Part shown: positions 5,752 through 64,000 of the stretch, piece by piece
Position numbering within the stretch: position 1 is the first letter of the stretch
How the letters are laid out: every line of letters starts with the position of its first letter
Source: Candidatus Tayloriibacteriota bacterium
Lineage (GTDB): Bacteria; Patescibacteriota; Minisyncoccia; Phycocordibacterales; UBA6065
Reading direction: 5' to 3'
Assembly: GCA_016215405.1 (NCBI GenBank)
Contig: JACRJQ010000002.1
Coordinates: 59,597 to 123,596, forward strand
DNA length: 64,000 bases
The notes under the pieces: generated by a model
Told to the model about the DNA's origin: nothing
Database searches by the model: none
Seen by the model: only the letters and a program-made list of their open reading frames with translations
Program-made: the position numbers and the translations under genes

Positions 5752-5779
5752 ATTATAGCATAATTTGTAGTATTGTCAA
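5752..5779 (-). promoter_or_regulatory. sigma-70-like promoter (TTGACA-N16-TATAAT) for the membrane protein / HK genes
   Basis: Minus strand reads TTGACAatactacaaattatgcTATAAT. Confidence 0.45.
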
Positions 5780-7334: not shown

Positions 7335-7518
7335 ATTGATAGGGATTATAACCCATTTACATTAAGAGCGCGACGTGATGTGTAAAATCCGCACCACAGT
7401 CCTAAAGGGCCGCAAAAGGACATCACCCCTTTTAAATTGTCAAAAAAAGGGGGGGTAGCAAATCTCGATATAGCGCGCTTTTGTGCTCGATCGCTCGTCG
7501 GCCAGCATAAAAAGAAGG

Positions 7519-14217: not shown

Positions 14218-14625
14218 TTATCGTTTTGACCACTGTGGCGACTTCCTTGCCTTCTTGAGACCGAACTTTCGGCGCTCCTTTGCTCGAGGGTCTCGCTTGA
14301 GCATCCCTGCCTTCTTGAGCTTCTTCCTGAGCTCCTTATCGTAGTCGAGGAGAGATCGGGAAATGCCGTGGCGGAGAGCCTCTGCCTGAGAATGGATGCC
14401 GCCTCCAGTAAGGATCGCGGTGACCTTGAACTTCTGGGCGAGCTTTGTCTCGGCGAATGGCGATTCGACGATAGTCTGCATCTCCTGGGTGACGAAATAC
14501 GAGGCGAGATCCTTCTCGTTTATCTCGAAGGACTGCTTTGCGGCAGGCGTGATGCGCACGCGAGCGATAGCGGTCTTGCGTCGGCCGACGGCTTCGAAGT
14601 ATCTGGTTTTCTCTACGGTAGTCAT
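14218..14625 (-). CDS. rpsI: 30S ribosomal protein S9
   Basis: GRRKTAIARVRI...PQWSKR. Confidence 0.95.
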   Translation of the reverse strand: MTTVEKTRYFEAVGRRKTAIARVRITPAAKQSFEINEKDLASYFVTQEMQTIVESPFAETKLAQKFKVTAILTGGGIHSQAEALRHGISRSLLDYDKELRKKLKKAGMLKRDPRAKERRKFGLKKARKSPQWSKR

Positions 14626-28000: not shown

Positions 28001-29095
28001 TTATACCACTATTCCGCCTCCAAGACAAGTCTCTCCGTCGTAGACGACGAGCGACTGCCCGGAAGCGGCCATGATCGGCCTGTCGAACTTGAACACGGCT
28101 TCGCCTTCGCCTGTGACCTGAACGCGGCAAGGCACAAGCTCGCCGAGGTGGCGTATGCGAGCGAGGAGCGCTGTCGATCCGTTAGGATCTCCCGATATCC
28201 AGTTGCAGGAAGAGACGCGATAAGCCGTCTTCTCCGTTGAGAGTGCGCCGTCGGAAGACCTATGGGACACGACCACCTCGTTTCTCGAAAGGTTCCTCGA
28301 TACCACATAGTAGGGACGGCCGTCCGCAGTCTTGTTCGCGACCGTGAATCCGTGCCGCTCCCCTACGGTCAAAAACGCGGCGCCGTCATGCTCTCCTATG
28401 ACCGTCCCCTCCTCGTCGAGCACCTTGCCCTTTTTCAGCTCTATGTAATGGGAGAGGAATTCCTTGATGTCGACTTTCCCTATGAAGCAGAGGCCCTGGC
28501 TGTCTCTCTTCTCTGCGACCGGAAGGCGAAATCTCGCGGCGAGCCCCCTCGTCTCGCTCTTCGCCATGCCGCCCACCGGAAAAAGAATCCTGACGAGCTC
28601 TCGCTGTGAGAGCGTCCAAAGGAAGTAGGATTGGTCTTTCGACCTATCGGCGCCCATCCCCAACTCTACCGAGGCGAAACCTCGGTAATCGTTACCGAGG
28701 TTTCGCCTCGGTAAGACCTGCGCGTAATGCCCTGTCGCGATATAGTCGGCGCCACGAGCCATCGCCCAATCGAAGAAGCCGCCGAACTTGACGTACCGGT
28801 TGCACATGACGTCGGGGTTCGGCGTCCGTCCGGCCTTGTATTCTGAGACCATGTAATCGACGACCTCTTTCTTGTATTCCTTCTCCAGGTCTAGTGTGAG
28901 GAACGGTATGCCGAGGTGCACGCAGACGCGCATGGCGTCGAGCCTGTCCTCTCTCCACGTGCACTCCATCCAATCGGGCTGCCAGACCCTTATAAAGACT
29001 CCAGTCACATCGAAGCCTTGCTCTTTGAGAAGAGCAGCAGAGACGGAGGAATCGACTCCCCCCGACATGCCGACATAGACTTTCTTTCCGTTCAT
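28001..29095 (-). CDS. mnmA: tRNA-specific 2-thiouridylase MnmA
   Basis: PP-loop SGGVDSS and catalytic Cys residues. Confidence 0.9.
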   Translation of the reverse strand: MNGKKVYVGMSGGVDSSVSAALLKEQGFDVTGVFIRVWQPDWMECTWREDRLDAMRVCVHLGIPFLTLDLEKEYKKEVVDYMVSEYKAGRTPNPDVMCNRYVKFGGFFDWAMARGADYIATGHYAQVLPRRNLGNDYRGFASVELGMGADRSKDQSYFLWTLSQRELVRILFPVGGMAKSETRGLAARFRLPVAEKRDSQGLCFIGKVDIKEFLSHYIELKKGKVLDEEGTVIGEHDGAAFLTVGERHGFTVANKTADGRPYYVVSRNLSRNEVVVSHRSSDGALSTEKTAYRVSSCNWISGDPNGSTALLARIRHLGELVPCRVQVTGEGEAVFKFDRPIMAASGQSLVVYDGETCLGGGIVV

Positions 29096-36904: not shown

Positions 36905-37029
36905 TTTTCAAAAATATTATCTTTATAAAACCGCTGCGACTTTTACCCATGAATTATAGCAACGTGGCAAGTTTTTGCCGTCGATGGTTATGCACAGCCG
37001 ACCTTTCGATCCACGACCCTGGCTCTGGG

Positions 37030-37075
37030 ATGAGCGACTAAAAACAGTATCATATATGATACTGTTTTTAGTCGC
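37030..37075. repeat. perfect palindrome, copy 1 (gagcgac-TAAAAACAGTATCATATATGATACTGTTTTTA-gtcgctc)
   Basis: The 32-bp core 37037-37068 is identical to the copies at 45360-45391 and 57552-57583; it lies 45 bp downstream of the ychF stop. Confidence 0.9.
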
Positions 37076-37116
37076 TCCAGCGACGCGCCCCTCTAATCAA
37101 AACCCGGGAGAGGAGA

Positions 37117-38214
37117 TTAGATCATGAATTCCATCACGTCTCCGTCTTTGACTATGTATTCCTTGCCTTCGGTGCGCACCCACCCTTTCTCTCGAGCCGC
37201 TCCGTACGAGCCCGCTTCGAGGAGCTTGTCCCACTCGATCACCTGAGCCCGGACGAACTTGTCCTTGAAGTCCGTATGGATAGCGGTGCCTGCGAGAGGC
37301 GCCGTCCAGCCCCTCTGTATCGTCCAGCCTCGGGTCTCTTTTTCGCCCGTCGTAAAGTATGTGATGAGCCCTAACATCTCGTAGCTTTTCCGTATGAGGG
37401 CGTCTATGCCGCTCTTGTCCGCTCCGAGGCCGGCGCGCATCTCGACCTTCTCCTCTTCACTCATCTCTTTAAGCTCGTTCTCGATACCCGCGTCTACCAC
37501 CACATAGGTGGAGCCGGTCTCCTTGAAGAACGCGAGGAGCTTCTGATACCTCTCGTCGTTCGTCTCGTCGAGGTTTCGGCCTCCGGATTTCTTATTGAGG
37601 ACGTAGAGGATCTTCTTCGAGGTCAGGAGGTGGATGTTATGGAGGAGAGGCGCCTCGTATTCGTCGGGCGTAACGGAAGAAGCGAGCTTTCCCGCCTCGA
37701 GGGCCGCCTGCAGCCTCTCGAGGAGGCCCATCTCTATAATGGCCTCCTTCTTGCCCGCCTTCACCTCCTTGCCGAGGTTCTGCGCCCGCTTCGTCACGGT
37801 CTGGAGGTCTGCCATGATGAGCTCGAGGTTTATCACCTCTATATCGCCCATAGGATCTATCTTGTTCGACACGTGGATGATGTCGGGATCCTCGAATATC
37901 CTGACTACCTCCGCTATAGCGTCGGTCTCGCGGATGTTCGTGAGGAACTTGTTGCCGAGGCCTTCTCCTGCGGATGCGCCCTTGACGAGCCCGGCGATAT
38001 CGACGAACTCGACGGCCGCAGAGACTGTCTTTTGCGTCTTGGAGAACTCGGCGAGCTTATAGAGCCTCTCGTCAGGCACGGCGACCACGCCCACGGACGG
38101 ATCTATGGTCGCGAACGGATAGTTAGCGATGAGAACGCCTTTTTTCGTGAGAGCCGAGAAAAGCGTCGATTTGCCGACGTTCGGGAGTCCGACGATGCCT
38201 ATAGAGAGGGCCAT
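37117..38214 (-). CDS. ychF: ribosome-binding ATPase YchF
   Basis: GIVGLPNVGKSTLF P-loop and a TGS domain. Confidence 0.9.
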   Translation of the reverse strand: MALSIGIVGLPNVGKSTLFSALTKKGVLIANYPFATIDPSVGVVAVPDERLYKLAEFSKTQKTVSAAVEFVDIAGLVKGASAGEGLGNKFLTNIRETDAIAEVVRIFEDPDIIHVSNKIDPMGDIEVINLELIMADLQTVTKRAQNLGKEVKAGKKEAIIEMGLLERLQAALEAGKLASSVTPDEYEAPLLHNIHLLTSKKILYVLNKKSGGRNLDETNDERYQKLLAFFKETGSTYVVVDAGIENELKEMSEEEKVEMRAGLGADKSGIDALIRKSYEMLGLITYFTTGEKETRGWTIQRGWTAPLAGTAIHTDFKDKFVRAQVIEWDKLLEAGSYGAAREKGWVRTEGKEYIVKDGDVMEFMI

Positions 38215-38335: not shown

Positions 38336-38782
38336 ATGAATACCGTTCCCACCGTCCTCATCCTCGAAAACAGTCCTCCTTGGGCAGAACTTTTCTCAAA
38401 AGTCATGCCCGAGGGCGTATCATCCGTCGTCGCGAGCCAAGCCGCGGCTTCGTCCGGAAAGTTCCGGTTCTTCAAGCACTCCCCCGTCCCCGAGGGAAAG
38501 CCCGAAGAAGTCGAAGTCGACATCGCGAAAATCGACGTCGTCATCATGAGCTACAAGACGTCGATCGCCGCGCCGAAAAGCGCCATCGACCTCATCGTCC
38601 ACTGGCGCCGAGCCGGCTTTGAAAAGCCGATCTTCATCGTCACGAGCCGCGGCGAAGAATGCATCGCCGAGCTCATGAAGAACGGAGTCTACAGCTCGAA
38701 CACCCCCGTGTTCAGCCGAGACTTCGACATGGCCACGGTCATGACCGCGGCGGTGACCCACGCCCTCAGCAAGAAGGACTGA
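38336..38782 (+). CDS. degenerate (pseudo-)receiver domain protein
   Basis: CheY-like alpha/beta pattern, but the acidic pair is EN and the phospho-acceptor position reads IMS (D replaced by S). Confidence 0.5.
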   Translation: MNTVPTVLILENSPPWAELFSKVMPEGVSSVVASQAAASSGKFRFFKHSPVPEGKPEEVEVDIAKIDVVIMSYKTSIAAPKSAIDLIVHWRRAGFEKPIFIVTSRGEECIAELMKNGVYSSNTPVFSRDFDMATVMTAAVTHALSKKD

Positions 38783-43840: not shown

Positions 43841-43912
43841 TCGCGGGATATATCTTACTACAAAGTTTGATAATTTGAAGCTTTTAAGCTATATTATCGC
43901 AGTCAGAAAAGC

Positions 43913-43985
43913 GGGCCCTTAGCTCATCTGGTAGAGCACCTCATTTGCAATGAGGGGGTGGCAGGTTCGAGTCCTGTAGGGTCCA
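43913..43985 (+). tRNA. tRNA-Ala (anticodon TGC)
   Basis: GGGCCCU acceptor with G3:U70; anticodon loop UUUGCAA; T-loop TTCGAGT. Confidence 0.8.
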
Positions 43986-45355: not shown

Positions 45356-45395
45356 CAGCTAAAAACAGTATCATATATGATACTGTTTTTAGCTG
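45356..45395. repeat. perfect palindrome, copy 2 (cagc-TAAAAACAGTATCATATATGATACTGTTTTTA-gctg)
   Basis: The core 45360-45391 is identical to copy 1; it lies between the convergent cPGI and GH57 genes. Confidence 0.9.
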
Positions 45396-48385: not shown

Positions 48386-48430
48386 GAGTTCCTATTATAC
48401 AACACCCTACTCAGGGAGCCTGGAAAAGGG

Positions 48431-52169: not shown

Positions 52170-52367
52170 ATGAGACTCAAGGCGGAATATTTCGACTGGC
52201 TCGGCCTCCTGTCGTTTCCCTTTATCCTCGGCTGCGGCGCCTATATCCTCTACGCAGGAGCGCTCTCGACCTGGGCGGCGTGGCTCCTCGTCGCGATCGG
52301 CGCGGGCGGCGTGCTCGTAGACGGCTTCATCGTCTACAGCTATTTCATAAAGAAAGGCAAAAGCTAG
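52170..52367 (+). CDS. possible small two-TM membrane protein
   Basis: 65 aa hydrophobic ORF in the ddl/uvrC divergent spacer; it overlaps the uvrC stop by 4 nt on the opposite strand. Confidence 0.3.
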   Translation: MRLKAEYFDWLGLLSFPFILGCGAYILYAGALSTWAAWLLVAIGAGGVLVDGFIVYSYFIKKGKS

Positions 52368-53617
52368 AGCCGTCCCTTTCTCCGATCCCTCATCCTTCGC
52401 AGCTTCCTGTGGTATGCGAGCGCGAACCGATGCGCCTCCGCGTTCGCGAGAAGGATCGCCTTTTTGTGCTCCGCTACGATCGCTTCGTCGCCCGCTATTC
52501 CCTTCGGCCTGTGCTTCTCGTCTTTGACCACAGCGACGACAGGGATAGCCAGCCCTCCTTCTCTGAGGACTTTCTCTGCGAGATTGCGCTGCCCCTCGCC
52601 ACCGTCTATGACCATGAGGTCGGGACGCCTCCATTCTTTATGCTTGAGGCGGCGCTCCAGTATCTCGCGAAGAGACGCCACGTCGTTATTGCCTATCTCC
52701 GGCGAGAGCTTGAATTTGCGGTACTCCCCCTTGGCGGCTTCGCCGTCGCAGACGACCGTCATGACGCCCGCAGACTCCTTGCCCGACATGTGGGCGGTAT
52801 CATACGCCTCTACGCGAAAGGCTTCGGCGCGCGGCTCTTCTTCCGTACGGCTGAAGCCGTCTACGTCCTCCTTTATGAGAGCGATATCCTGGATATGGTC
52901 GAGGGCGAAAAGCTTCCTCTTCGCCTCCGCCGCCTTCTCGAACTCGCGCTTCTTCGCGTATGAGTCCATCTCCGCTTCGAGGACCTTGCAAAGCTTCTTC
53001 TTTTTTCCTTCAAAGAAGAGGATTATGCGGTCGACGTTCTTCTTGTACTCCGCGACCGCCTCATCGGACGCAGTGTCAGGCGCGAGCCCGATCTGCCTAT
53101 AGAACGTGGCGGTGTATTTCGAAGACGAGTGCCTGTCGATATAGGGGAACATCCTCCTTATTATCTTGAGGGCTTCCCTCAGGGCCGAGCCTGACGTAAA
53201 AGGGCCAAACACCTTGCGCACCCTGAGAAGCTTCTTCTGCCTCTCTACATCGAGCGTCCTGCCGCGGATGGTAAGGATGCGAGGGAACCTCTCGCGGGTA
53301 ACGACCACATAATTCCAGCTCTTGTCGTCCTTTTCCTTCACGTTGTAGTCGGGCCAATGCCTCTTTATGAGATTGGCTTCTGCTATGAGCGCTTCGAGTA
53401 TGGAATCGGTCTCTTGCCACTCTATGGCGTCAGACTTGTAGACCATATCGACCATGCGGGGCCCTCTGGTCGATATCAGGTCCGCCGAAAAATAGCTCCG
53501 TACGCGGTCATAGAGAGACGTGGCTTTGCCTATATAGAGGATCTTCCCTTTCTCTTTCCAGAAATATACGCCTGGCGTATCGGGAAGACCGAGCTTTTCG
53601 AACTCTTGGATAGTCAC
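52364..53617 (-). CDS. uvrC: excinuclease ABC subunit C, short form (GIY-YIG + UvrBC-interaction + RNase H-like endonuclease, no HhH tail)
   Basis: GVYFWKEKGKILYIGKATSLYDRV GIY-YIG motif and a C-terminal MVIDGGEGQ endonuclease motif; 417 aa. Confidence 0.85.
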   Translation of the reverse strand: MTIQEFEKLGLPDTPGVYFWKEKGKILYIGKATSLYDRVRSYFSADLISTRGPRMVDMVYKSDAIEWQETDSILEALIAEANLIKRHWPDYNVKEKDDKSWNYVVVTRERFPRILTIRGRTLDVERQKKLLRVRKVFGPFTSGSALREALKIIRRMFPYIDRHSSSKYTATFYRQIGLAPDTASDEAVAEYKKNVDRIILFFEGKKKKLCKVLEAEMDSYAKKREFEKAAEAKRKLFALDHIQDIALIKEDVDGFSRTEEEPRAEAFRVEAYDTAHMSGKESAGVMTVVCDGEAAKGEYRKFKLSPEIGNNDVASLREILERRLKHKEWRRPDLMVIDGGEGQRNLAEKVLREGGLAIPVVAVVKDEKHRPKGIAGDEAIVAEHKKAILLANAEAHRFALAYHRKLRRMRDRRKGRL

Positions 53618-53714
53618 AGGGGATATATTGTACTTTCCCTAGCTTGGTGTAAAGTAAATCCGAAACCCGGCTCTCTCGCAGATCCGGACAACAAAAACCA
53701 AAGATCCAGCACAG

Positions 53715-54062
53715 ATGAACAACGTCACCTATCCCGGTTATGTCCTGTTGTCAGACGGCGGCAAGCTTACCTTCAAGGCAGCGAGCCACAAGATGGCGGT
53801 CGCGGCGGCGCAGAAAGTCCTCAACCTGCGCACCATGACCATGAAGGCGTTTCGCAAAGCGAAAGCCATCGCCATCTACTTCGGCATCCAGGCGCGCCAG
53901 ATCTTCCCCTTCCGCCAGCAGCGCTCGAAAGACGCGCATGCCGACCGGATGCGGAATCGCCAACGGCTGCCCGTGATCGACCACAAGGACGGCATCGACG
54001 TCGGCCGACGGCGGCATTATGTCGCGCCGCAACGCTTCACGGCGATGCTCGCGGCAGCCTAA
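53715..54062 (+). CDS. hypothetical protein (codon usage atypical for the window)
   Basis: 115 aa; uses CGC/CGG/ATC where host genes use AGG/AGA/ATA. Confidence 0.25.
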   Translation: MNNVTYPGYVLLSDGGKLTFKAASHKMAVAAAQKVLNLRTMTMKAFRKAKAIAIYFGIQARQIFPFRQQRSKDAHADRMRNRQRLPVIDHKDGIDVGRRRHYVAPQRFTAMLAAA

Positions 54063-54130
54063 CGTCAGCTCATCTCATCCTTTCGAAGCCCCAGCGTACG
54101 CTGGGGCTTTCAAATCGCCCGAAGATATGG

Positions 54131-54159
54131 CTTGATATATGATATAAAACGTGCTATAA
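54131..54159 (+). promoter_or_regulatory. consensus sigma-70 promoter TTGATA-N17-TATAAT
   Basis: cTTGATAtatgatataaaacgtgcTATAATcatg. Confidence 0.5.
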
Positions 54160-54165
54160 TCATGA

Positions 54166-54345
54166 TTGAATGAAAGTTCGACGAAGGACAGTCATAAGAC
54201 ATGCTTCGACTCTCCTTCCCCGCATCAGACCCGCGGGTAAGAAGATTCTAAGCATGCGTTCCGTGAAAAAGCCGAGAGGCCTTTCCGCGGGATCGTGAGA
54301 ACGGACGGGCCGCGCTTCGCGCGGCCCGTCCTTGCCCTTTATATT
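54166..54345 (+). ncRNA. candidate small RNA (promoter-to-terminator unit, ~175 nt)
   Basis: Starts just after the -10 at 54154-54159 and ends at a 13-bp GC hairpin (54303-54331) plus T-rich tail; an internal SacII-site stem (CCGCGG...CCGCGG) is present; it contains only a 42-codon, very basic ORF. Confidence 0.35.
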
Positions 54346-54408
54346 CTCTTTATCTGCTTCCGATAAGATAGAGACGAGCTTTCACAACCCTTAAACCCGC
54401 TCTTTAAC

Positions 54409-54669
54409 ATGGTCTATCCTGACTCTGGCATGGAATACATGGAGAGGAAGCCTCTCCTTTTGCGCACTGTCGCTTGGTTCTCGACGGGAGCCGTCCTGTT
54501 CGCAGGCGGCCTCGCTTCGCTCTGCGAGGGATGGTTCGGAAACGAAACTTCCCTCGCGTCGCTTCTCGCAGGCATCCTCACCGGCCTGGTGGGCGCATAT
54601 TACCTGAACCGCTACAGCCAGCGGAAATTCCAAGACGGAGGAGGCCGCATCAGGCGCAAGAAGCGCTGA
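54409..54669 (+). CDS. small two-TM membrane protein (hypothetical)
   Basis: 86 aa, followed by the terminator at 54690-54720. Confidence 0.4.
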   Translation: MVYPDSGMEYMERKPLLLRTVAWFSTGAVLFAGGLASLCEGWFGNETSLASLLAGILTGLVGAYYLNRYSQRKFQDGGGRIRRKKR

Positions 54670-54689
54670 CCCCGGCCCCCCCCGGATCG

Positions 54690-54720
54690 AAGCGAGCTTT
54701 CGAAAGGACGCTCGCTTTTT
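54690..54720 (+). terminator. intrinsic terminator
   Basis: AGCGAGC-TTTCGAAAGGAC-GCTCGCT followed by TTTTTT; convergent with the uvrA stop. Confidence 0.6.
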
Positions 54721-54727
54721 TATTGGC

Positions 54728-57346
54728 CTAGCCCTTCTTCAAGATCTTCTTGAGGTACTTTCCCGTATGGCTCTTCTCGTTCCTGGCGACGTCTTCCGGC
54801 GTCCCTTTCGCGACTATCTGTCCGCCTCCCTCCCCGCCTTCAGGACCCATGTCGATCACGTAATCGGCGCACTTGATGAGGTCGAGGTTGTGCTCGATCA
54901 CGATCACAGTGTTGCCGTGGTCTACGAGCTTTTGGAGTATCTCTATGAGCTTTCTCACATCTTCGTAGTGAAGGCCGACCGTAGGCTCGTCGAGGAGATA
55001 GACGGTGCGGTGGGTGTCGGGCCTGTAAAGCTCCGAAGATATCTTTACTCGCTGAGCCTCGCCTCCCGAAAGGGTCGTCGCCGACTGCCCGAGCTCGAGA
55101 TATCCGAGACCCACATCAGAGAGAGTCCTCATTCGGTCGTATATCGCCGGAATGTCTTCGAAGAACCTGAGGCTCTCTTCGACCGTCATCTGGAGCACCT
55201 CGTAGACGTTCTTTCCTTTGTACTCGATCTCGAGGGTCTCCTTTTGGAACCTCTTCCCCTGGCAGACCTCGCAGGGCACGTAGACCGTAGGGAGAAAATG
55301 CATCTCGACGGCTATCTCTCCGTTTCCTTGGCATGCCTCGCAACGGCCGCCTTTGACGTTGAAGGAGAATCGGTTCGACTTCCAGCCTCGAGCTCGGGCC
55401 TCTGTAGTCTCCGCGAAGAGGTCGCGCACGAACGTCCAGGCGCCGGTATAAGTCATCGGATTGGATCGCGGCGTCCTGCCTATGGGCGATTGGTCTATGA
55501 GTATGGTGCGAGAGACGTATTCGGTCCCGGTGAAAGACGCGGCGTTGAAGACCTCGTTCGTCCTGTGCCTCTTCTCGAGCCTGCCCTGGAGGTTCTTATG
55601 GATTATCTCGTAGAGGAACGAGGACTTTCCCGACCCCGAGACGCCCGTCACGCAGACGAGCTTGGCGAGAGGGATATCGGCATTGAGGTTCTTTATATTG
55701 AAGATATTGCCTCCGCGTACGGATAACTTTCCCTTGTCGTGGTTTCGGCGGGCGTCGGGAAGGTCGACCTTCATCTCGCCTCGCAGGTACGCGAGCGTAA
55801 GCGATTCCGACTTATTGTCTTTGGCCGTGAGCAAAGGCTCGAGATAGTCAGCGACGACGACGTTGCCGCCATGGATGCCCGCGCCTGGCCCGATATCGAC
55901 GATGTAGTCGGACGCGAAGATGGTGTCCTCGTCATGCTCGACCACGAGGATGGTGTTGCCGAGGTCGCGGAGGTTTAGAAGCGTCTTTATGAGACGGTCG
56001 TTATCGCGCTGATGCAGGCCGATGGTCGGCTCGTCGAGGACATAGAGCGCTCCGACGAGTCCCGATCCCAGCTGGGACGCGAGCCTGATGCGCTGGGCCT
56101 CGCCTCCGGAGAGCGTATGGGCGCGGCGGTCGAGCGTGAGGTAGTCGATCCCTACGTCGAGCATGAACTTGAGGCGAGACTCTATCTCGCGCAAGACCAC
56201 TTTCGCTATGCTCTTCTCCTTTTCGGAGAGCTCGATGTCGGCGAAATATCCGAAAGCGTCCGATATAGACATCCTTACCACGTCTACGATCGACCTCCCT
56301 CCGATAAGGACGTGAAGCGCCTCCTCGCGCAGCCTCGCCCCTTTGCATGCGTCGCAGGGCTCGTCGCCGAAGATGTATTTGGTCCCAAGGCCGTTACAGG
56401 TCGGACAAGCGCCGTAGGGCGAGTTGAACGAGAAGAGGCGCGGTTCGACCTCTGGATACGCGTATCCGTCGTACGGACACATGAATTTTACCGACATGAG
56501 GCGCTCGCCCTTAGGCTCGTCTATCTTGATGAGCCCTCCCGACTCGTGTATGGAGCGTTCGACCGCCTCGGAGAGCCTCTCGCGCACGCCCTTCGGATCG
56601 TTCTTGAATTCGCTTATGTAGAACTCGTCGACGAGGAGGTCGATGTCGTGCTTCTTGTTCTTGTCGAGCTCGATCCTCTCACGGAGCTTCTTTACCTGGC
56701 CGTCGACCTTCACGGTCTCGTAGCCTTTGCCGAGATAGTCGTAGAGCATCTGGTAGTATTCCCCCTTTCGCCCGACCACGAGCGGCGCGAATATTCGGAC
56801 CTTATCCTTGTCGACAGGGACCCCCATGACCTTCACCCCTTTATCGCCGGCTCTGTCCGCCTTGGCATGGGTAACGCTCTCGATTATGGTCTCGAGTATC
56901 TCTTCGTTAGAGAGCCTCTTTATCTCGCGGTCGCAGATGAGGCAGTGCGGCCTCCCGACGCGGGCGAAGAGAACTCGGAGATAGTCGTATATCTCGGTGA
57001 TAGTGGCGACCGTCGAGCGCGGATTGTTCGAGCGGGATTTCTGGTCTATGGATATGGCCGGAGAAAGCCCCGCTATCTCGTCGACGTCGGGCTTTTGCAT
57101 CTGGCGAAGGAACTGTCGAGCATACGAGGAGAGCGATTCGACGTAGCGGCGCTGCCCTTCGGCGAAGATGGTATCGAAGGCGAGAGACGACTTTCCCGAC
57201 CCAGAAAGGCCTGTGAACACGACCATCTTGTTGCGAGGCATCTCGACCGTTATGTTCTTGAGGTTGTGGGTGCGCGCTCCCTTTACGACGAGCTTGTCGG
57301 CTCCCGGATTAAAGTCGGCTTTCGAGGTCTTTTTGGCGGCAGACAT
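54728..57346 (-). CDS. uvrA: excinuclease ABC subunit A
   Basis: 872 aa with two ABC ATPase modules (GLSGSGKSS, GVSGSGKSS) and zinc-finger CxxC pairs. Confidence 0.92.
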   Translation of the reverse strand: MSAAKKTSKADFNPGADKLVVKGARTHNLKNITVEMPRNKMVVFTGLSGSGKSSLAFDTIFAEGQRRYVESLSSYARQFLRQMQKPDVDEIAGLSPAISIDQKSRSNNPRSTVATITEIYDYLRVLFARVGRPHCLICDREIKRLSNEEILETIIESVTHAKADRAGDKGVKVMGVPVDKDKVRIFAPLVVGRKGEYYQMLYDYLGKGYETVKVDGQVKKLRERIELDKNKKHDIDLLVDEFYISEFKNDPKGVRERLSEAVERSIHESGGLIKIDEPKGERLMSVKFMCPYDGYAYPEVEPRLFSFNSPYGACPTCNGLGTKYIFGDEPCDACKGARLREEALHVLIGGRSIVDVVRMSISDAFGYFADIELSEKEKSIAKVVLREIESRLKFMLDVGIDYLTLDRRAHTLSGGEAQRIRLASQLGSGLVGALYVLDEPTIGLHQRDNDRLIKTLLNLRDLGNTILVVEHDEDTIFASDYIVDIGPGAGIHGGNVVVADYLEPLLTAKDNKSESLTLAYLRGEMKVDLPDARRNHDKGKLSVRGGNIFNIKNLNADIPLAKLVCVTGVSGSGKSSFLYEIIHKNLQGRLEKRHRTNEVFNAASFTGTEYVSRTILIDQSPIGRTPRSNPMTYTGAWTFVRDLFAETTEARARGWKSNRFSFNVKGGRCEACQGNGEIAVEMHFLPTVYVPCEVCQGKRFQKETLEIEYKGKNVYEVLQMTVEESLRFFEDIPAIYDRMRTLSDVGLGYLELGQSATTLSGGEAQRVKISSELYRPDTHRTVYLLDEPTVGLHYEDVRKLIEILQKLVDHGNTVIVIEHNLDLIKCADYVIDMGPEGGEGGGQIVAKGTPEDVARNEKSHTGKYLKKILKKG

Positions 57347-57465
57347 GGCAGATATATAGGTTTCTCCCCCAGGATGGGTACCTGGGGTTAGTACGGAGAG
57401 TCTAGCAGATTAAGGTCTCGATTTCCATACTGCTCGCCGTTCTAGACCCCAAACAAAGATTCAGA

Positions 57466-57549: not shown

Positions 57550-57585
57550 GCTAAAAACAGTATCATATATGATACTGTTTTTAGC
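57550..57585. repeat. perfect palindrome, copy 3 (gc-TAAAAACAGTATCATATATGATACTGTTTTTA-gc)
   Basis: The core 57552-57583 is identical to copies 1 and 2; it lies 40 bp downstream of the esterase gene and upstream of uvrA. Confidence 0.9.
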
Positions 57586-62907: not shown

Positions 62908-63121
62908 AGAACGAACCGAGCCCTCGTTCGAGGGCTCGGTTCTGATTTCGTGGGGATAGTTTTGAGATTATCGCACAAAGTCACAACTGAGGCCTCGAAC
63001 TCGCGTCCTAAGGACCTTCGTAATGTGATTAAACTTTGCGCAATAATTCTTCATTGCCCCATAACGATACGCCAGAAAGGGGTTTCCCGCAAGGGCCGGC
63101 TGTTGATATCTGCGCGAAAGA

Positions 63122-63168: not shown

Positions 63169-63459
63169 TCAAAAGCTGGCGATCCCTCTCGATTCGAGGA
63201 CCCGCCTGTAGGGCCCGAGGTCGAGCCCTATCGGGTGCCACACCTGGTATACGCCGTTGTAGACGAGAGTCACATCTTGGCCGTTCTGACCTATGACGTA
63301 TCCGTATTGGCCAGCGACGGGATTCTCGTATGGTTTAGCGTATGTTCTGTCCTTGAACACCGTCTTCTGCGAGAGCTCTCCTCCGAATAAGATCCATTGA
63401 TTCATCATCTCGGTCCCCTTTTTGGTTGTTTCTATGCTGGGATTTCTGCTCGCGGGCAT
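63169..63459 (-). CDS. hypothetical small protein
   Basis: 96 aa (or 79 aa from MMNQWILFGG at 63408), followed by the terminator. Confidence 0.4.
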   Translation of the reverse strand: MPASRNPSIETTKKGTEMMNQWILFGGELSQKTVFKDRTYAKPYENPVAGQYGYVIGQNGQDVTLVYNGVYQVWHPIGLDLGPYRRVLESRGIASF

Positions 63460-64000
63460 ATGCCTGCGAACCCTTGTACTACGAGCCCTGCCGTCCTCCT
63501 TGTTGCCTTAAGCAACAAAAAGCCCGGAAGCGCGCGTAGACGCGCCCCCGGGCTGACCAAAAACATGGAATGAAAGGTCTACGAGACCCTACCTGATTTA
63601 GACCTTTAAGATCCCCGCCAGAAATTGGGACCTCGGCTTGAAGCGGTCAGTTAGACTTCGCGCGCGAGCGCTCCGTCAAGTAGACCAGCATTTGGCCGGA
63701 CGAACTATCGGTTAGACGCAGCTGCTATTGCCTCTGCGAATCTCCGACAACCGGACTGTCTCGTGGTGACCCGACCCGCGCTTTACCGGCGCGGGCGGAT
63801 AGGGCCAATGCCTTGCAGCAAGGGCAACCTGATCATTCCACTTCCATTTCCATGTTTTTTCATGTCGTTTCTTTGTTTTTTGTTGCGGACATGCGCCGAA
63901 GCGCATGCCAAATTGGTGATAAACAAAAGAAACAAGAACGGCCTCGATCAATTCTAATCCCTTAAACCGATTTGTAAAGATATGAAAGGGCCGTGCTCGG

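Follow-up and report, generated by a model that had tools for sequence, protein, structure and literature searches.

A sigma-70-type promoter and a GC-rich hairpin between uvrC and uvrA of a Candidatus Taylorbacteria genome: a possible lineage-specific leader of a small membrane-protein gene

The spacer between uvrC and uvrA in a MAG of the Paceibacterota (CPR; Candidatus Taylorbacteria) contains a short unit that extends from a promoter to a GC-rich hairpin. The locus was analysed within a stretch of 64,000 nt, referred to here as the window, and the best relatives of its uvrC all belong to Paceibacterota or Patescibacteria MAGs. The following genes and features make up the locus.

52364-53617, minus strand: uvrC
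53715-54062, plus strand: gene for a 115-aa protein, between uvrC and the candidate unit, with its own terminator
54081-54114, plus strand: terminator hairpin of the 115-aa gene, the 5' boundary of the candidate unit
54132-54345, plus strand: candidate unit
54409-54669, plus strand: 86-aa ORF encoding two hydrophobic helices and a basic tail (NCBI form: 79 aa, start at 54430, HZA81_00590)
54689-54726, probably both strands: canonical terminator between the 86-aa gene and uvrA, a 9-bp stem followed by TTTTTTATT
54728-57346, minus strand: uvrA

The two small flanking genes are HZA81_00585 and HZA81_00590, between which the NCBI annotation is empty. A preliminary description had placed a candidate small RNA (sRNA) in the uvrC-uvrA spacer beside a small membrane-protein gene, and this location is correct, with the 115-aa gene additionally situated between uvrC and the candidate. 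The 115-aa protein represents a fast-evolving family (56-36% identity) whose genes keep a divergent orientation to uvrC in several relatives. Homologues were retrieved by tblastn from the related loci L004, L082, L083, L084 and L085, on the minus strand in locus orientation at 3586-3909 of L004, about 1108-1410 of L082, about 2600-2905 of L083 and 2609-2920 of L085. The motifs AVAIYFG, IFPF and GRRRH are kept in the family, and hints of a winged-helix or repressor fold were weak and sub-threshold. Protein searches with the three small proteins of the locus (115, 42 and 86 aa) returned the MAG's own entries only. As to a phage or defence context, PHROG and PADLOC gave zero matches, and inspection of the flanks for repeats as an insertion signature yielded short chance-level repeats only.

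Within and directly downstream of the candidate unit, the following elements were recognized.

54132-54160, plus strand: sigma-70-type promoter (-35 box TTGATA at 54132-54137, 17-nt spacer, TG at 54153-54154, -10 box TATAAT at 54155-54160)
54167-54168, plus strand: predicted transcription start, 7-8 nt past the -10 box, as placed by the usual sigma-70 spacing
54170-54298, plus strand: 42-codon ORF (MKVRRRTVIRHASTLLPRIRPAGKKILSMRSVKKPRGLSAGS), stop codon at 54296-54298
54200-54256, plus strand: hairpin H1, with imperfect 24-nt arms (83% complementary), a 9-nt loop and regular 1x1 mismatches
54257-54295, plus strand: hairpin H2, with the apex GCC-GAGA-GGC at 54271-54280
54303-54345, plus strand: GC hairpin with tail (stem-loop 54303-54331, tail TTGCCCTTTATATT), a candidate leaky terminator or attenuator
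54347-54374, plus strand: A/U-rich hairpin of 9 bp, downstream of the tail
54375-54384, plus strand: CGAGCTTTCA, predicted to pair with 54171-54180 (TGAAAGTTCG, overlapping the ATG) in a 10-bp helix
54385-54408, plus strand: G-poor linker, predicted to be unpaired, ahead of the 86-aa start

The candidate promoter agrees with the consensus at 11 of 12 positions, carries the TG extension in addition and is overlapped by a tandem TGATATA TGATATA at 54133-54146. The near-perfect sigma-70 promoter reported earlier at 54131-54159 is indeed present, although its coordinates were one base too low. Sites with at most one mismatch and 17-nt spacing occur twice in the 64 kb, compared with 0.06 expected from shuffles, and the second of them is located upstream of a real gene; the candidate promoter is clearly beyond chance. 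It has the -35 hexamer and the extended -10 element (TGC) in common with a tRNA promoter at 43867-43895 on the plus strand, which reads TTGATA-N17-TATATT with TGC before the -10 box and precedes the tRNA gene at 43913 by 17 nt. Another site in the window, at 5752-5779 on the minus strand, is a perfect 12/12 promoter (TTGACA-N16-TATAAT, with TGC before the -10 box) located past a terminator and leading into a structured leader of ~64 nt down to 5688, with CCGCATTCCGCGG, followed by a 185-aa ORF starting with TTG.

Transcription from the predicted start would leave a leader of 2-3 nt ahead of the ATG at 54170. An SD-like motif was found at 4 of 42 genes in this genome, first-in-operon genes mostly lacking a Shine-Dalgarno sequence, and a -10-like box is located 5-11 nt before the start codon in 12 of the 42 versus 4 at control offsets. 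Starts of the leaderless type are exemplified on the minus strand by 53618-53660, 57347-57370, 48386-48410 and 7335-7360. At uvrC, the arrangement TTTACA-N17-CAATAT-N7-GTG/ATG is kept in six of eight aligned loci, this window included. Leaderless mRNAs thus seem common in this genome, as judged from promoter-to-start distances. A literature search for leaderless translation or sRNAs in CPR returned nothing directly relevant.

The ORF of 42 codons, noted before as extremely basic, was confirmed at 54170-54298 with the sequence then quoted, and its product has 13 basic and 0 acidic residues. Its ATG lies 9 nt past the -10 box, the geometry seen at leaderless genes here, so that the start stands in the initiation context used by this genome, and its stop codon lies 4 nt ahead of the GC hairpin stem (54303). 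Dinucleotide shuffling yields an ORF that extends from promoter to hairpin in 2.7% of cases, a share that rises to 7.5% when GTG and TTG starts are allowed. The codon usage tells against an ordinary gene: the codon score of the ORF is -0.07 versus +0.42 +/- 0.23 for real 42-codon gene windows, of which just 3.5% score as low, the synonymous-only score is -0.07 versus +0.20 for genes, GC3 is 0.52 versus 0.71, and minor codons account for 6 of 8 Arg and both Thr residues. No coding signal was detected in any frame of the candidate region; the neighbouring small genes give in-frame signals of +0.31 and +0.37, negative out of frame. As a control, rpmJ of the same genome (38 aa, equally basic) scores +0.31, which indicates that basic composition is not the cause of the codon deficit.

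No homologue of the 42-aa product was found among 5.8 billion clusters or 1.84 billion representatives, and no family match was obtained in Pfam, NCBIfam, PHROG or PADLOC; tblastn against all related loci retrieved only the identical contig L001. The product resembles bL34 and bL36 in length (~40 aa) and in being very basic, and its C-terminal GKKIL..R..KK.R.LSA recalls, by eye, the bL34 pattern GRKVL.RRR.KGRK.LS. The N-terminal bL34 signature, however, is absent, the codon usage is unlike that of the genome's rpmJ, and Pfam and NCBIfam gave no match even at E <= 10, so an identity with bL34 was rejected; the absence of the ORF from relatives also excludes a ribosomal protein. The suggestion of a tiny basic peptide is favoured by the start geometry and disfavoured by the codon usage and the missing homologues. 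The ORF looks translatable, yet unlike a protein under ordinary selection, and its rare-codon, non-adapted usage is tolerable for a regulatory upstream ORF and not for a normal gene.

The GC hairpin consists of fully complementary arms (100%) at 54303-54315 and 54319-54331, forming 13 bp around a TTC loop, and is the stable G+C-rich stem-loop of an intrinsic (Rho-independent) terminator. A U-run directly after the stem, taken as at least 5 T in 8, is lacking in the tail TTGCCCTT..., where just two T follow the stem (UU GCCC UUUAUAUU), and the hairpin does not appear in the terminator scan list. Terminators of this genome mostly carry 3-6 contiguous U past the stem, and the one downstream of 14218-14625 likewise has just UU in this position. 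Of the 13-bp GC hairpin with T-rich tail described initially, the perfect stem stands and the tail is weaker than implied, with only the two T directly after the stem; the T-rich tail is found on the plus strand only.

As for the body of the unit, the GAGA-loop hairpin noted earlier is present as the apex of H2. The paired CCGCGG segments exist as copies at 54231-54236 and 54285-54290, but in the predicted fold each is part of its own hairpin, with no mutual pairing. With the GC hairpin included, the fold reaches z = -5.5; the body by itself gives -3.6. A z of -3.6 or lower is attained by 3.8% of 135-nt windows (474 windows of the same DNA), and the opposite strand of the candidate is just as well folded (z = -3.8), so that the body structure is notable but neither exceptional nor strand-specific. 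Structure alone is not strong evidence for an RNA gene, and the hairpins may be DNA-level features, as the genome holds other long palindromes.

Among these, a 30-bp perfect palindrome, AAAAACAGTATCATATATGATACTGTTTTT, has three exact copies at 37040-37069, 45361-45390 and 57553-57582, each intergenic and downstream of a gene; zero copies are expected by chance, and it is absent from the 161 loci fetched. It could serve as a repeated bidirectional terminator or a protein-binding site. A perfect palindrome with 22-bp arms (TACCGAGGCGAAACCTCGGTAA / TTACCGAGGTTTCGCCTCGGTA) is located at 28667-28713, inside a 364-aa ORF (28001-29095) and within the most structured 135-nt window sampled (z = -7.3). 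Windows at about 62911-63045, 63451-63585, 38611-38745 and 36991-37125 have fold z values of -5 to -6.5 on both strands, and short perfect palindromes are found at 62913-62942 and 63450-63469.

Conservation was assessed in 160 loci around uvrC relatives, 80 from genomes and 80 from metagenomes. The gene order uvrA-uvrC-ddl is widely kept in them, with uvrA ~90% identical in the nearest relatives. The candidate DNA was absent from all 160 in BLAST and nhmmer searches, although the uvrA, uvrC and ddl flanks are conserved, and tblastn found neither the 42-codon ORF nor the 86-aa gene there. With a covariance model derived from this one sequence and the fold predicted for it, zero matches were obtained in 99 loci (L002-L100), the window being searched as well, and codon-wobble and exact pattern scans of metagenome and viral contigs came back empty. 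The sole other carrier is the Logan contig L001, which is 100% identical over 3132 nt and hence offers no variation. The preliminary description had fixed beforehand that a region not conserved between conserved flanks would speak against the sRNA; exactly this was found, and a conserved sRNA is refuted. Rfam 15, which covers 6S RNA, SRP RNA, riboswitches and known sRNAs, was applied to the whole window at gathering thresholds and detected only five tRNAs elsewhere, and the best models within 53950-54750 (E <= 10) reached 11-18 bits compared with thresholds of 39-111 bits (E = 0.5-9).

The candidate and the 86-aa gene are jointly present here and jointly absent from all relatives, and thus form a lineage-specific block, gained or lost as one. 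The uvrA-uvrC spacer itself, compared across L002-L008 and L082-L085, is shortest in L008 (about 10 nt) and longest in L002 (about 2.2 kb) and is a local hot spot for accessory DNA, the cargo differing per genome and often comprising small two-helix membrane proteins. Its commonest residents are homologues of the 115-aa gene, and the spacer of L004 holds that homologue and one terminator only. L085 has a good promoter followed by a first ORF and then, as second cistron, an ORF for a small two-helix membrane protein; this arrangement has no sequence similarity to the window. A pseudogene remnant of the 122-aa first cistron of L085 was rejected as the origin of the candidate region, as the two are not similar. 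A C-terminal 'GRI' had suggested one common family for the two-helix ORFs of L002, L085 and the window, an idea dropped when BLASTP came back empty.

An unrelated element of ~125 nt was observed in L083, a groundwater relative, where it takes the place that the candidate has in the window, at 2385-2510 on the minus strand between the terminator of the 115-aa homologue and the uvrA stop. It has a 33-bp near-perfect closing stem around two hairpins with the loops GAGA and AGAA, a fold z of -10.8 and no Rfam match. The gene layout of L084 is as in L083.

The 86-aa gene carries a coding signal of +0.37 in frame versus -0.23 and -0.30 out of frame, and its protein finds only itself in 5.8 billion proteins. 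Its best own promoter match, 9 of 12 positions, is at chance level, and the gene is a probable downstream cistron of the candidate unit. The order of the elements is that of a leader-peptide attenuator, with the stop codon at 54296-54298, the stem from 54303 and the next gene at 54409. The pairing of 54171-54180 with 54375-54384 is predicted to close the whole 54171-54384 domain in read-through transcripts, and the fold of 54166-54460 has a z of -6.8. For this closing helix, five of six sequence contexts give a pair probability of 0.75-1.0, the exception being 54168-54560 with about 0.05; the duplex energy of the helix is -13.4 kcal/mol, a value reached by 1-5% of shuffles. The helix, which was noticed post hoc, is of modest significance and disappears in one folding context. 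No antiterminator pairing able to compete with the 13-bp GC stem was seen, the only overlaps with the terminator arm found by eye being of 5 bp (CCGCG/CGCGG), and a U-rich pause tract before the GC hairpin is absent.

The preferred interpretation is that the candidate constitutes a lineage-specific structured leader of ~240 nt belonging to the 86-aa membrane gene, to which a tentative probability of about 0.35 is assigned. Of the trans- or cis-acting sRNA proposed originally, a separate promoter-to-hairpin unit with neither an ordinary gene nor a known RNA family remains at the level of sequence, and the cis-acting option fits best in view of the weak tail, the helix extending beyond the hairpin and a downstream gene without a good promoter. 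The promoter at 54132-54160 would head a unit running into the 86-aa gene. Transcription from about 54167-54168, 2-3 nt before the AUG, would produce what in this genome amounts to a near-leaderless message, so that ribosomes would probably translate the 42-codon ORF. Poorly adapted as it is, this ORF resembles an upstream ORF or a leader peptide more than a conserved protein. The GC hairpin with its weak U-tail may act as a leaky terminator: termination there would release a short RNA of about 170-175 nt, as the preliminary description predicted, and read-through would give a message of ~560 nt for the 86-aa protein, ending at the terminator at 54689-54726. Given the 4-nt spacing, a ribosome finishing the upstream ORF would probably cover the 5' arm of the hairpin, so that tight coupling of translation and transcription would favour read-through. 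In the read-through RNA, the 5' end including the AUG would pair with 54375-54384, closing the leader into a compact domain.

Several points weigh against a leader of the 86-aa gene. Comparative support from related loci is absent, the body structure ranks in the top 4% of the background and is equalled by the opposite strand, and the GC hairpin could terminate efficiently even with such a tail, in line with the UU-only terminator mentioned above. Alternatively, a weak box of the leaderless type (TATCCT), situated 9 nt ahead of the ATG at 54430, could drive the 86-aa gene. The fully specified version, in which a leaderless leader peptide gates the GC terminator by ribosome occlusion and so controls the small membrane protein, the terminated ~170-nt RNA persists, and the 5'-3' helix shuts the upstream ORF in read-through RNA, is quite unlikely as a complete scheme.

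An independent non-coding, trans-acting sRNA of ~170 nt, extending from the strong promoter to the GC hairpin, is possible though somewhat unlikely. It would account for a promoter of the type found at the tRNA gene of the window (TTGATA, 17-nt spacer, TGC before the -10 box), for codon usage that is non-genic in every frame, whereas rpmJ is readily recognized, for the stable hairpins at z = -5.5, and for the empty annotation between HZA81_00585 and HZA81_00590. It is at odds with the failure to find the candidate in any of the related loci (160 by BLAST and nhmmer, 99 by covariance model) or in Rfam, and with the poor U-tail. Target duplexes predicted against 54 gene starts in the 64-kb window were no better than those of shuffled RNA, 66% of which performed equally. 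Such an sRNA would also leave both the spanning ORF (2.7% of shuffles) and the helix beyond the hairpin (1-5%) as coincidences, and in this genome a transcript with AUG at its 5' end would probably be read by ribosomes.

A stand-alone gene for the 42-aa, very basic protein, expressed from a (near-)leaderless mRNA with its own terminator, is unlikely. The ATG 9 nt past the -10 box, as at leaderless genes here, an ORF filling the unit as exactly as in only 2.7% of shuffles, and the 13 basic residues with no acidic one are what such a gene would show. Against this stand the absence of homologues from the 1.84 billion representatives and 5.8 billion clusters and of matches in the four family collections searched (Pfam, NCBIfam, PHROG and PADLOC), the codon score of -0.07 with low GC3 and minor Arg and Thr codons where rpmJ scores +0.31, and a stop codon only 4 nt from the terminator stem, nearer than at the neighbouring genes.

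Non-functional filler, that is, a variable spacer that recently gained palindromic DNA and a promoter-like A/T-rich stretch, is very unlikely: the hot-spot character of the spacer (about 10 nt to about 2.2 kb, with cargo differing per genome), the other long palindromes of the genome, the two-stranded structure within the top 4% of background and the lack of conservation would all fit, but chance would supply just 0.06 promoters of the 11/12 type with a TG extension per 64 kb, the one present sits exactly where needed, between the upstream terminator and an otherwise promoterless gene, and the T-rich tail is confined to the plus strand. A type I toxin-antitoxin system was rejected, as extended complementarity to the 86-aa gene is lacking, Ldr_toxin (E = 0.16) misses the cut-off and PADLOC is empty.

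Taken as a leader of the 86-aa gene, the unit recalls translation-coupled attenuators such as the E. coli pyrBI leader, with its leader ORF of 44 codons, and rph-pyrE. In both cases the stop of a short upstream ORF (~40 codons) coincides with or closely precedes a GC-rich terminator hairpin ahead of the regulated gene, and a ribosome that follows RNA polymerase closely would mask this hairpin, resulting in read-through. Unlike pyrBI and rph-pyrE, the candidate has no U-rich pause tract, would start leaderless instead of SD-led and shows no sequence homology to them. Listeria SreA and SreB are riboswitch-derived sRNAs, short RNAs arising from premature termination in 5' leaders. They share with the candidate the succession of promoter, structured leader and terminator upstream of a gene, as well as a terminated product of sRNA size, whereas a known aptamer match, a competing antiterminator fold and conservation are all missing from the candidate. 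Dual-function sRNAs that carry a small ORF include SgrS/SgrT, RNAIII/hld and SR1/SR1P. The candidate is comparable to them as a structured transcript of roughly 170-230 nt with an ORF of roughly 26-43 codons, but differs in that its ORF fills the whole transcript and in the lack of an evident pairing target or homologues.

The element is best classed as a lineage-specific leader or short transcript, an orphan of one population and outside all known families. Its general importance is probably small, as it is confined to one population, lies beside an orphan gene and is not checkable by comparison. To our knowledge, regulatory RNAs, leaders and small proteins are almost unexplored in the Patescibacteria (CPR), as these are mostly uncultured. 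If transcribed as proposed, the unit would illustrate how a gene is controlled where gene starts are mostly leaderless, and it would show translation to be the likely default for 'sRNA-like' units of such genomes.
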